From a virus (Duplodnaviria > Caudoviricetes), in the IMG/VR virus record IMGVR_UViG_3300032030_000028, positions 1-64,000 of that record: a stretch of DNA of 64,000 bases; one strand, written 5' to 3'. The stretch's first letter is position 1. Each line of letters begins with the position of its first letter. The position numbers were made by a program, and so were the translations under genes. Of the stretch, positions 645 to 35,965 are shown in pieces. The notes beneath the pieces are model-generated. The model had not been told where the DNA came from. It was given only the letters and a program-made list of their open reading frames with translations, and ran no database searches.

Positions 645-1322
645 ATGAACAAGACAGACGTAAAAAACATTAAAAGCTTGCTCAAGTGGCGTGAATTGTC
701 CCGTAAAGTGAGCAAAGGCGCCGACTACGACACGGCCGGCGAGATCAAATTTGATGTGCTTTCTGAGTACTCAGATGATGAGCTCAATCAGAAAATGCAA
801 GAGTTCGAGGAAGCAGAAAAGAGAAAAGCTGCTGACAAGTTCCGCAGTCTCGTTGATGCATTCTTCAAGAAGTGGGGCGATGAAGGCGACAACATGATAG
901 TGCTGAGCGGCGCATACGTCCCAGAGAGAACGACCTATGAAATGGAAGATCCAGTGAACGACATCTACTGGGACCGTAGCGATTACAACAAACTGTACCA
1001 CGCAGTCGGCAGCCAGCAGCCGAGCAACAGCTATTTTGCTGTCTGTGATCTTCCCGAAGCGGAGAGAGCAGATAGAGAAAAGCTGTGGGATAAGTTCTGG
1101 ACAGACATGGAACCAATCCGTAAAGAAGCAAGAAAGCTCAAGATTCCGACAGCAGAGAAATACTGGGAGGACGACAACCATGCTCTCAACGAATGCTGGT
1201 ACGGCGTAATCGGAGTCATGAAAGACTACCGCATCGTATCTTTCGTCATCCGAGACGACGGCATGCTGTGCGACGAGGAAGGATACGAAACCTTCTACAA
1301 CTCTGTAATCACACAACTGTAA
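645..1322 (+). CDS. Hypothetical protein
   Basis: 225-aa ORF in operon. Confidence 0.8.
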   Translation: MNKTDVKNIKSLLKWRELSRKVSKGADYDTAGEIKFDVLSEYSDDELNQKMQEFEEAEKRKAADKFRSLVDAFFKKWGDEGDNMIVLSGAYVPERTTYEMEDPVNDIYWDRSDYNKLYHAVGSQQPSNSYFAVCDLPEAERADREKLWDKFWTDMEPIRKEARKLKIPTAEKYWEDDNHALNECWYGVIGVMKDYRIVSFVIRDDGMLCDEEGYETFYNSVITQL

Positions 1323-29339: not shown

Positions 29340-29410
29340 GGATATGTAGCTTAGTGGTAAAAGCGGTCCCTCTAGGGGATTGACATGAGTTCGAGTCTCA
29401 TCATGTTCCG
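29340..29410 (+). tRNA. Putative amber suppressor tRNA(CUA)
   Basis: GGTCC-CTCTAGG-GGATT arm; normal D and T arms; bulged acceptor stem. Confidence 0.6.
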
Positions 29411-32318: not shown

Positions 32319-32397
32319 TGTCTGATAGCTCAATGGCAAGGGAACAGAGCACCTCGGGAACATCGGGGCGACGGAGGTTCGATTCCTTCTCAGACAA
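32319..32397 (+). ncRNA. Aberrant tRNA-like RNA (enlarged D-loop, non-canonical anticodon loop GGAACAT)
   Basis: TGTCTGA/TCAGACA acceptor and normal T-arm. Confidence 0.55.
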
Positions 32398-32400
32398 CAA

Positions 32401-32816
32401 ATAATATCAGTTAACAGTAGGCTTGAAAGCAGCCATCTGATAATGAGTTGCGAGAGGAAGTTTGCGTGGAAGTCATGACTCCGCAAGAGAACAAGGCGCA
32501 TGTGAGTAACTTGGCAATATACATGTGAGAAACACCTCAGGAATAACAAAAATGGAAATCCCGAATGCAAAGAAGGTAGCATAGCTGAAATGCTATGTGA
32601 GGTTCCAGTAGCGTGACGGTGTATAGAAGTGATGTAGTTAAGTTTTATGTAAGCCCCAACAGTACGAGAGGAACCTGGGGTTAATGGATGCCATTAAGGT
32701 TTCTATGCCGTAAGTGATTCGGTAAAGAACGCGAGAAGTATCAAGTGAAGGCTCGCGGCCAAAAGCATAAAACAGTCCTCAGAGCATTTGGCGTGATAGC
32801 ACATAATTGGTATTAT
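32401..32816 (+). ncRNA. 416-nt RNA with 23S rRNA L11-binding-region and sarcin-ricin-loop mimics
   Basis: 13-bp closing stem; GTAGGCTTGAAAGCAGCCATC..TAATGAGT / GCGTGATAGCACA; AGTACGAGAGGA hairpin at 32652-32682. Confidence 0.7.
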
Positions 32817-32818
32817 AC

Positions 32819-32894
32819 AGGGAAGTAGCTTAGCGGTCTAGAGCGACAATGGGTGCGACGCCCGGAAACATTGGTTCAAATCCAGTCTTCCCTG
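32819..32894 (+). ncRNA. Aberrant tRNA-like RNA lacking a normal anticodon loop
   Basis: AGGGAAG/CTTCCCT acceptor, normal D and T arms, short GGGTG-CGA-CGCCC hairpin in centre. Confidence 0.55.
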
Positions 32895-32898
32895 CTAT

Positions 32899-32981
32899 GG
32901 AGAGTAAACTCGGAAGGTCTGAGCGCTGTCTCGAAAACAGACGGAGTCTAACGACTTGGGGATCGAGACCTCAGTTCTCCG
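32899..32981 (+). tRNA. tRNA-Ser(CGA)
   Basis: CTGT-CTCGAAA-ACAG; long variable arm. Confidence 0.8.
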
Positions 32982-32986
32982 CAGAT

Positions 32987-33073
32987 GGAGAGCTAAGCCG
33001 GCGGGGCTGGCCGCTGTTTGGAAGACAGTCGGAGTCTGAAAGATGGCTTGGGGATCGACACCTCAGTTCTCCG
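32987..33073 (+). tRNA. tRNA-Ser(GGA)
   Basis: GCTGT-TTGGAAG-ACAGT. Confidence 0.8.
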
Positions 33074-33081
33074 CAAACAAT

Positions 33082-33165
33082 GGAGAATTAACTGCAGCGG
33101 CCTGCAGGCCGGTCTTGAAAACCGTGGGAGGGTAACACCTTGGGGATCGACACCTCAGTTCTCCG
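33082..33165 (+). tRNA. tRNA-Ser(UGA)
   Basis: CGGT-CTTGAAA-ACCG. Confidence 0.8.
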
Positions 33166-33339
33166 CAAAGGCTTCAGTAATGAAGTTAGGTGTCCTTGGG
33201 AGGCTTAATTACCCTCCGACCGTGTGGAAACCCCACTATAGCGTACCGAGGATCGTGGGCACCCTCCGTCAGTGTAGTAGCGCTGTAAACTGACGGAGAT
33301 ATCCAAGCAAATAATCAGCACGAAAGTGCGTCAACATAT

Positions 33340-35492: not shown

Positions 35493-35568
35493 GGGAGTTT
35501 AGCTCAGCTGGTTCAGTAGCGTCTGCCTTACAAGCAGAAGGTCGTTGGTTCGAATCCAACAACTCCCA
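35493..35568 (+). tRNA. tRNA-Val(UAC)
   Basis: TCTGC-CTTACAA-GCAGA. Confidence 0.9.
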
Positions 35569-35572
35569 CAAA

Positions 35573-35860
35573 GCTGGTATCGATGACGCTCTGGTGAAAG
35601 GATGTTTGGACGAGGGGTTCGATTCCCTCTACCTCCACTATTTCTCAGCTGACCAACCATGATGTTGGAACAGTTACGGTGGCGGAAACTTAACATGAGA
35701 TCCGTCACTTGCTTATGGGGGTAATTGGTTTTGACAGCATTTGAGTAAGAAGAGAAGAGATGCTGGTAAGTGAGAATAAATCACAACACAACTTTTCGTC
35801 TTGCCGCTTAATCTCTAGGAGATTTAGCAGTAAGGGTCCGGGCGGAACCAAATCCGCCCT
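35573..35860 (+). ncRNA. ssrA: Two-piece (circularly permuted) tmRNA
   Basis: Acceptor piece GGACGAGGGGTTCGATTCCCTCTACCTCCA (to 35637) precedes GGGGGTAATTGGTTTTGAC (35717); G3:U70; tag frame 35782-35811 HNTTFRLAA-stop. Confidence 0.8.
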
Positions 35861-35864
35861 TTAT

Positions 35865-35937
35865 GCTCTTATAGCTCAATGGATTAGAGCACGGGCCTCC
35901 GGAGCCCGGAATCCGGGTTCGAATCCCGGTAGGGGCT
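35865..35937 (+). tRNA. tRNA-Arg(CCG)
   Basis: CGGGC-CTCCGGA-GCCCG. Confidence 0.9.
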
Positions 35938-35965
35938 CGAAAAATATCTATGATCTTTCCTATAT

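Follow-up and report, generated by a model that had tools for sequence, protein, structure and literature searches.

The GTPase-associated centre (GAC) of 23S ribosomal RNA (rRNA) is a domain of 58 nucleotides (nt), made of the top of helix H42 with H43 and H44, that binds the protein uL11 and thiostrepton. It lies 1600 nt from the sarcin-ricin loop (SRL); both are brought together solely in the folded ribosome. The toxins VapC-mt20 and VapC-mt26 cut within the SRL. Rebuilding of such sites outside rRNA is known from the mRNA leaders of the ribosomal proteins L1, L10 and L20, which mimic rRNA binding sites in cis. Both VapC toxins cleave 23S rRNA, and the toxin Tre23 ADP-ribosylates H44 at 1095-1098 (PMC8661411). 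EF-G and IF2 were both bound in vitro by an oligonucleotide consisting of the SRL by itself, and EF-G binding was lost with G2655U (PMC3496166). EF-G binding to oligonucleotides of the thiostrepton domain was reported as well (Munishkin and Wool 1997, as cited in PMC3496166). When an A/R-tRNA is held with RelA on the ribosome, A1067 serves as a stacking surface for its elbow, and its acceptor stem is in contact with A2660/G2661 (PMC5829649). Here we describe a putative phage RNA of 416 nt that carries likenesses of both sites in one molecule. It is encoded at positions 32401-32816 (+ strand) of a 64,000-nt stretch of DNA from a large uncultured phage, hereafter the window, which is the first 64 kb of the 110-kb IMG/VR record IMGVR_UViG_3300032030_000028, a record estimated to be about half complete.

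Comparative analysis supports a real, structured, non-coding RNA at this locus. The reading that we tentatively prefer, with somewhat less than even confidence, is that the RNA would act as an off-ribosome mimic of the factor-binding site, binding host uL11 and displaying an SRL conditionally. The original prediction, made from the letters of the window, had described a unit of 416 nt between tRNA-like genes, closed by a 13-bp stem and with ends that match H43-H44 but are split by a 342-nt insert. All of these elements were found in the sequence. Two of the 13 pairs of the closing stem are G.U; its inner 5 bp correspond to 23S 1051-1055/1104-1108, the top of H42 (E. coli numbering), and A1056.A1103 comes next. 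The 5' piece (32417-32448) is identical to E. coli 23S 1059-1090 at 23 of 32 positions and the 3' piece, GCGUGAUAGCACA, to 23S 1091-1103 at 11 of 13. Six of the differences (1080, 1081, 1082, 1086 and 1090, with 1101 in the 3' piece) fall in pairs that are still complementary, the compensated pairs being 1057-1081 (C-G), 1058-1080 (A-U), 1082-1086 (A-U, replacing U-A) and 1090-1101 (U-A). H43 reads CAGUAGGC-UUGAAAGCA-GCCAUCUG, where UUGAAAGCA is the 9-nt loop. It retains the U1060.U1078 mismatch and has a second one, A1061.A1077, which we take to be the stabilising U1061A change. In the upper H44, G1091-C1100 and C1092-G1099 carry the loop GUGAUA with G at 1095. The window lineage has G at both 1067 and 1095, where rRNA has A at both.

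The two best short matches of the element to the E. coli rrnH operon are the SRL and then the H43 word AAGCAGCCAUC. The slice containing H43 is matched weakly by the Rfam model LSU_rRNA_bacteria of the large subunit (LSU) rRNA, at model positions 1098-1122 (5.8 bits, E 3.1), H43 scoring alone because the 342-nt insert breaks the match to the covariance model. Rfam scans of the region at gathering thresholds returned tRNA-type models only. At E<=10, a 2.4-kb region gave tRNA-type models and a chance match to a long non-coding RNA outside the element, with no LSU rRNA match and no other family, GOLLD and ROOL included. The original prediction had not recognised the RNA as a named family, in agreement with the Rfam result.

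The ends of the window RNA define a wider family of phage RNAs. A two-motif pattern search returned L006, a close relative on a phage contig of 361 kb, and L004, a distant one with all three motifs retained. A pattern built on the H43 word gave 40 loci, of which about 30 are RNAs with matching ends and inserts of 0 to about 470 nt, and the 3' motif alone matched at least 119 viral contigs. Several candidates were set aside as chance matches: L003 and L005, the loci L009/L024, L019/L023 and L022/L030/L037 among those with the H43 word, and L055 and L056, from a scan of genome contigs that returned coding DNA only. The family sample comprises 93 distinct members of 105-509 nt, and the structural statistics that follow refer to it. 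The closing-stem pairs are complementary in 83-99% of members and use all four Watson-Crick types, and H43, 1082-1086 and H44 stay paired through compensatory changes. The 1082-1086 pair alone appears as UA in 38 members, CG in 26 and AU in 13. Position 1056.1103 is G.A or A.A in 91 of the 93, the U1060.U1078 mismatch is kept, 1061-1077 is either U-A or A.A, and G1071, C1072, G1091-C1100 and C1092-G1099 are invariant. The loop patterns by which membership was judged are UURRRRGCA (the 9 nt of H43) and GURRYA (the H44 hexaloop), and both loops of the window RNA conform. In the minimal member L040:295-353 the Rfam bacterial LSU model aligns over its positions 1092-1149 with all pairs formed (42.4 bits, E 5e-12). 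Since this uninterrupted member matches the model exactly at H42-H44, the core is a faithful structural copy of the uL11-binding domain.

Position 1095 is A in 90 of the 93 members. Position 1067 is A in 61 and G in 6 of the 68 members sampled without bias at that position. Among lineages of the SRL-carrying type described below, likewise retrieved without bias there, G1067 occurs in four (the window, L004, L035, L049) of eight (the others being L045, L046, L048 and L051), an enrichment (Fisher p ~0.009) computed on a small sample and ignoring relatedness. Members without the SRL, unannotated and about 200-250 nt long, are also present in the cultured phages Xanthomonas XacN1, Serratia BF and Pseudomonas UNO-G1W1. 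Ahead of the XacN1 RNA is a gene with the annotation 2'-5' RNA ligase, and a terminator-like hairpin comes after the RNA; that of UNO-G1W1 lies between tRNA-Trp and tRNA-Arg, under an opposite-strand coding sequence that is probably spurious. A blastn search of the cultured-phage collection with the window RNA gave no match, and three other SRL-type RNAs matched cultured phages in the GAC 5' core of about 45 nt only, no SRL version being found there.

The SRL-capped hairpin that had been predicted within the insert was recovered as well. The 12-mer AGTACGAGAGGA at 32661-32672 is identical at 12 of 12 positions to E. coli 23S 2654-2665. It is part of a hairpin in which a 6-bp stem (32653-32658/32676-32681) closes a 17-nt loop region; the latter combines a 'flexible region' of non-Watson-Crick C.C and A.A with a bulged-G module and, as tetraloop, GAGA. 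The bulged-G sequence is present in the window as A2654 G2655 U2656 A2657 opposite G2664 A2665 N2666, with the C2658-G2663 pair. In a cmscan of the hairpin slice the sole match was to helix H95 of the archaeal LSU model, and it was weak (8.8 bits, E 0.33). With one mismatch allowed, the SRL 12-mer is expected 0.21 times per window and was present in 13 of 100 shuffles. Single motifs are not significant alone, and the weight therefore rests on homologues.

A check of homologues for covariation had been proposed together with the original prediction, and its outcome is favourable. Searches with the SRL word and the 3' motif, plus inspection of other long members, yielded a subfamily of 19 related RNAs from 16 lineages (373-517 nt) in which all three motifs recur, GAC and SRL alike, and the stems covary. 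Base composition differs widely within it and the inserts are otherwise unalignable; the same architecture is found in independent contigs of very different base composition (the window against L035, L045 and L051). In the stem 2646-2651/2669-2674, 93 of 96 cells are paired over the 16 lineages, with CG, GC, AU and UA exchanges, a value reached by none of 20000 partner shuffles. Counted on the alignment, 97% are paired and five of the six pairs have changed on both sides. GUAC and GGA are kept in 18 of the 19 RNAs, and a GAGA or other GNRA loop in at least 16. Position 2653.2667 is non-Watson-Crick throughout, as in real SRLs, and 2654 is G or U in two lineages. Substitution patterns of this kind indicate that the SRL hairpin is under selection. 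Of roughly 70 members that the 3' motif brought in, an unbiased sample, 4 (about 6%) are of the SRL version, with the hairpin and the helix A described below. Members shorter than about 377 nt have no such hairpin, save for an out-of-context pattern match in the 215-nt L098. One pair of SRL-type members, L054 and L048, is identical save for about 45 nt just after 1090 that cover the P2 5' strand and the first hairpin. This replacement breaks P2a, which suggests that L054 is a recombinant or decaying copy.

In the inserted domain, P2a (32449-32451 UGC/32784-32786 GCA) serves as anchor together with a GA/AGA internal loop and P2b (32454-32457 GAGG/32777-32780 CCUC). Inspection by eye finds P2a in seven covarying forms (UGC/GCA, AGC/GCU, GUC/GAC, GGC/GCC, UCC/GGA, GAC/GUC and UUC/GAA), with a conserved GA-rich internal loop after it and then a short helix. 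Constrained folds place several local hairpins in the insert, such as 32579-32598, and MAFFT with RNAalifold gave no consensus structure for its variable segments. That hairpin, just upstream of the strand d discussed below, has the loop GCUGAAAUGC, which contains the 8-mer UGAAAUGC of the 16S 690 loop. Mimicry of the 690 loop was not retained: the 8-mer occurs in five lineages only (including L048, L049, L012 and L031), the remaining lineages showing unrelated hairpins at that place, and is probably a coincidence. When the insert was compared with other rRNA segments, no sequence match recurred at homologous sites, the recurrent short matches being words of the GAC core that match elsewhere.

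The SRL loop is not free of other pairing. Its 3' half (32670-32676, G2663-U2669) is complementary to a conserved upstream strand, strand d, with which it can form a helix, helix A, and positions 2663-2668/2669 covary with that strand. In 15 of the 19 RNAs no other part of the whole upstream region forms as good a duplex with the SRL 3' half as strand d does, and its distance from the SRL, on the upstream side, is 54-63 nt in all members except one (78 nt). Double-sided changes are seen at 2666 (UA, UG, AU), 2667 (GC, AU, UA) and 2668 (GC, CG, AU, UA, GU). In all, pairing is seen in 109 of 128 cells where shuffles average 91, and none of 20000 shuffles attains the observed value, in tests that cover 16 lineages in a hand-anchored register and ignore phylogeny. 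A structure-blind MAFFT alignment leaves helix A 86% paired and, with the hairpin stem (helix B) included, gives 91.7% against 70.3% when shuffled; sliding the 3' partners by 1-3 columns lowers pairing to 23-54%. These comparisons indicate that helix A, too, is under selection. An alternative partner for strand d, the SRL-like word GAGUGGAAG at P2, was rejected, as it offers 4 bp only and is not conserved.

Helix A and the SRL fold both need G2663, G2664 and A2665 and are therefore mutually exclusive. These three nucleotides never vary despite lying in helix A, and such invariance inside a Watson-Crick helix fits a second constraint from the SRL fold. As its 3' half pairs with strand d, the SRL fold cannot be permanent, which complicates a simple decoy; the original prediction had proposed that the RNA would titrate anti-phage toxins aimed at the ribosome or bind factors such as uL11, EF-G, EF-Tu or RelA. 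Nearest-neighbour folding puts the two states at near-equal energies (-92.9 and -91.0 kcal/mol). The region is either a switch, or a pseudoknot of helix A and the hairpin stem in which the SRL fold is never formed. The switch is favoured by the retention of AGUAC, the SRL 5' half, in 16 of the 19 RNAs and by the lack of covariation at G2663-A2665 while their neighbours covary.

In the preferred reading, the two ends of the RNA would fold into a self-closed copy of the GAC (top of H42, H43 and H44) that binds host uL11, and the SRL hairpin, borne on the insert in H44, would provide another point of contact for a host protein or complex, one that normally docks on GAC and SRL together. Candidates for this second partner are a ribosome-targeting toxin, a translational GTPase or a complex of the RelA/tRNA type. 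Pairing of strand d with G2663-U2669 would toggle the RNA between a masked form and one that displays the SRL. A host partner is suggested by the gene content of the phages. Genes for uL11 (PF00298) and for a translational GTPase (PF00009) are absent from five phage records carrying an SRL-type RNA, two of them at least 94% complete. No family of open reading frames (ORFs) next to SRL-type loci is common to more than two of them, and a PHROGs search of the large ORFs of the window returned almost nothing. With no phage uL11, no translational GTPase and no conserved neighbour, the partner is probably host-encoded.

Several observations weigh against this reading or limit it. The tips that would contact factors and toxins are relaxed in the subfamily: 1067-1070 vary among purines, and 1095-1097 and 2659-2662 vary. 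These are the sites touched by GTPases, the tRNA elbow, thiostrepton and known toxins. The tetraloop is GAGA in 13 RNAs, GGGA in three, and GAAA, AGAA and AGGC in one each, and such drift among relatives implies that its positions are not under rRNA-like constraint. Position 2666 is A (as in the window), G or U, never the bacterial C. In L167 both helices are kept and the 5' half of the SRL motif is lost. A bulged-G module with a GNRA cap is a common building block, so that the 12/12 identity to the SRL is less improbable than it seems. The covariation counts carry the limits given with them, and if helix A and the stem are present together, in a pseudoknot, it may be that the SRL fold does not arise at all. 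The fold-determining nucleotides are nevertheless invariant in the subfamily; that fold-building and uL11-contacting nucleotides are kept and the tips relaxed fits selection for shape and uL11 binding better than for catalytic-site fidelity. A stronger version of the preferred reading, which we find distinctly doubtful, is a replica of both sites that is gated: the masking strand would be freed by uL11 or by some other trigger, and a ribosome-targeting defence toxin of the host, or a stress factor of the RelA-tRNA type, would be caught by the SRL so exposed.

The chief rival is a decoy for uL11 alone, in which the insert would be a scaffold or stabilising domain and the SRL-like hairpin, as a bulged-G and tetraloop module put to new use, would be locked in a pseudoknot of helix A and stem B and never presented. 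We consider it unlikely, though a serious possibility. Such an RNA would work like the roughly 90% of family members that are hairpin-less, most members being 105-330 nt long and without an SRL-like hairpin. Helices A and B use adjacent, non-overlapping nucleotides and both covary, and a pseudoknot with an 11-nt crossing loop would be sterically plausible. The tetraloop that is not fixed, the persistence of A and B in L167 and the absence of any further rRNA match at homologous insert sites all suit this explanation. It accounts poorly for AGUAC, which would there be a mere connecting loop, and for G2663, G2664 and A2665, which do not covary with strand d when the neighbouring pairs do. GAGA also dominates over other GNRA loops, and chance would not readily unite a faithful copy of the GAC with an exact SRL 12-mer in a single RNA.

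A docking platform for tRNA is improbable. The purine at 1067 would stack on the tRNA elbow and the SRL tetraloop would be in contact with the acceptor stem, in the manner of the A/T and A/R states; the RNA would then keep, protect or present tRNAs, whether of phage or host, or complexes of tRNA with protein. To our knowledge, no isolated GAC or SRL RNA binds tRNA without the ribosome, which counts against this function. In its favour, only purines occur at position 1067, 18 of the 19 RNAs have a purine-rich tetraloop, and the contact geometry has been described (PMC5829649). The gene also lies within an array of more than 25 tRNA genes, between two atypical tRNA-like ones, a location equally well explained by shared transcription and processing. 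Finally, a captured or decayed host 23S fragment, an assembly chimera or a cis-regulatory leader can hardly be credited: short exact matches to 23S rRNA do exist, but the order GAC 5' half, SRL, GAC 3' half is not colinear with 23S (as the original prediction had argued), the hairpin has the non-bacterial A2666, the family counts 93 distinct members with compensatory changes and self-closing stems, the architecture is repeated in contigs of very different base composition, and no ORF lies downstream of this RNA, placed as it is between tRNA-like genes.

The array, with its more than 25 tRNA genes and a permuted transfer-messenger RNA (tmRNA), occupies 28.2-36.0 kb of the window on the + strand, and the element is a discrete gene within it. 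Its 5' end comes 3 nt past the upstream tRNA-like gene and its 3' end 2 nt ahead of the downstream one. The ORFs of at least 40 amino acids in this stretch are short and overlap each other and the tRNA genes, so no plausible coding gene is present there. The tight flanking suggests that tRNA-processing enzymes would free defined ends: a tRNA 3'-end nuclease and RNase P would cut the neighbouring tRNA-like genes, and the RNA is probably excised in this way from the array transcript, at about 416-421 nt. SRL-type RNAs lie within tRNA arrays in 13 of the 16 lineages and adjoin tRNA genes in at least 7. The features of the locus and the cultured-phage members are listed in Table 1.

Table 1. Coordinates of the window RNA, its parts and its neighbours, and of family members in cultured phages (window positions unless an accession is given)
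Feature	Position	Strand	Evidence
Upstream tRNA-like gene	32319-32397	+	Rfam tRNA model, 40.4 bits
Closing stem, 5' strand	32401-32413	+	read from sequence
H43 copy (23S 1057-1081)	32415-32439	+	blastn-short to rrnH, cmscan, family statistics
Junction 1082-1086 (AUAAU) and lower H44 5' strand GAGU (1087-1090)	32440-32448	+	sequence, family covariation
Inserted domain, 342 nt, between 1090 and 1091	32449-32790	+	P2a covariation, constrained folds
Strand d, AGGUUCC, 5' strand of helix A	32600-32606	+	duplex search, covariation
SRL-type hairpin	32653-32681	+	identity to 23S, cmscan, stem covariation
Upper H44 hairpin and lower H44 3' strand (A1101, C1102, A1103)	32791-32803	+	sequence, family conservation
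Closing stem, 3' strand	32804-32816	+	read from sequence
Downstream tRNA-like gene	32819-32894	+	Rfam tRNA model, 42.6 bits
L170, Xanthomonas phage XacN1	AP018399.1 ~150358-150589	-	
L171, Serratia phage BF	KY630187.1 ~285212-285460		
L172, Pseudomonas phage UNO-G1W1	PP551948.2, locus 897-1097		

Other features of the array were recorded alongside. The acceptor and T arms of both flanking tRNA-like genes are normal and neither gene is called by ARAGORN; the D region of the upstream one has 10 extra nt, and the downstream one has a 20-nt anticodon region. Directly 3' of the latter, 32895-33170 (+) holds three related tandem units, each ending GGGGAUCGA(G/C)ACCUCAGUUCUCCGCA, the third of which (33081-33165) scores 43.8 bits on the tRNA-Sec model, whose cut-off is 47. 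The permuted tmRNA is found at 35577-35811 (+) by Rfam RF04321 (62.1 bits, gathering score 47), and the tmRNA call made by ARAGORN spans 35544-35965, the tag peptide being VRAEPNPPFMLL. At 29340-29409 (+) lies a tRNA with anticodon CUA, of the amber-suppressor type and labelled 'Pyl' by ARAGORN, which may point to TAG recoding in the phage.

Were the preferred reading correct, phages would carry a stand-alone RNA replica of the docking site of translation factors, produced in the manner of a tRNA and found in hundreds of large phages, and the subfamily would extend this replica from one rRNA centre (GAC) to two (GAC and SRL). It would represent a new kind of host takeover or counter-defence. 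The gated replica, if real, would be an RNA-based counter-defence by rRNA mimicry, parallel to the phage tRNAs that oppose tRNA-cleaving defences. Such RNAs would also offer a natural 'ribosome-in-pieces' for studies of recognition by uL11, GTPases, RelA and ribosome-targeting toxins. With its two helices that covary and exclude each other, the RNA is a candidate natural RNA switch, and the cultured phages XacN1, Serratia BF and UNO-G1W1 are tractable systems that carry the non-SRL RNAs.

Compared with the GAC of 23S rRNA (E. coli 1051-1108), the phage RNA has the same secondary structure, including the 9-nt H43 and 6-nt H44 loops, and the phage family has in common with it the mismatches 1056.1103 and 1060.1078, the covarying pair 1082-1086, the core G1071 and C1072, and the pairs 1091-1100 and 1092-1099. 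The window RNA differs in being a separate small gene with a self-closing stem in a phage tRNA array, in having H44 split by 342 nt and in its G at 1067 and 1095. What the wider family has in common with it is the core, the place in H44 where the insert enters, the tRNA-array context and the P2 junction with its GA-rich internal loop, a junction also present in the shorter members from XacN1, Serratia BF and UNO-G1W1. By sequence, the window hairpin shares with the SRL (H95, E. coli 2646-2674) the 6-bp stem, the non-Watson-Crick 2653.2667 and 2654.2666, G2655, U2656.A2665, A2657.G2664, C2658-G2663, GAGA and the identical 12-mer. It differs by A2666, of archaeal/eukaryotic type, by a tetraloop that varies among relatives and by a 3' half for which the same molecule offers a pairing strand further upstream; we know of no such pairing for the SRL of rRNA. 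A full-text literature search found no paper describing such a phage RNA or the wider family of GAC mimics. With the ribosomal-protein mRNA leaders and the 'ribosome-in-pieces' oligonucleotides, the phage RNA shares the principle of an rRNA protein-binding site rebuilt off the ribosome. In contrast to them, it is natural, it joins two distant rRNA sites in one molecule and it is not cis-regulatory, as its neighbours are tRNA-like genes and there is no ORF for it to control. Cis-acting mimics are thus known from mRNA leaders, whereas a trans-acting replica of one rRNA centre, here of two, encoded in a tRNA array was not previously known.

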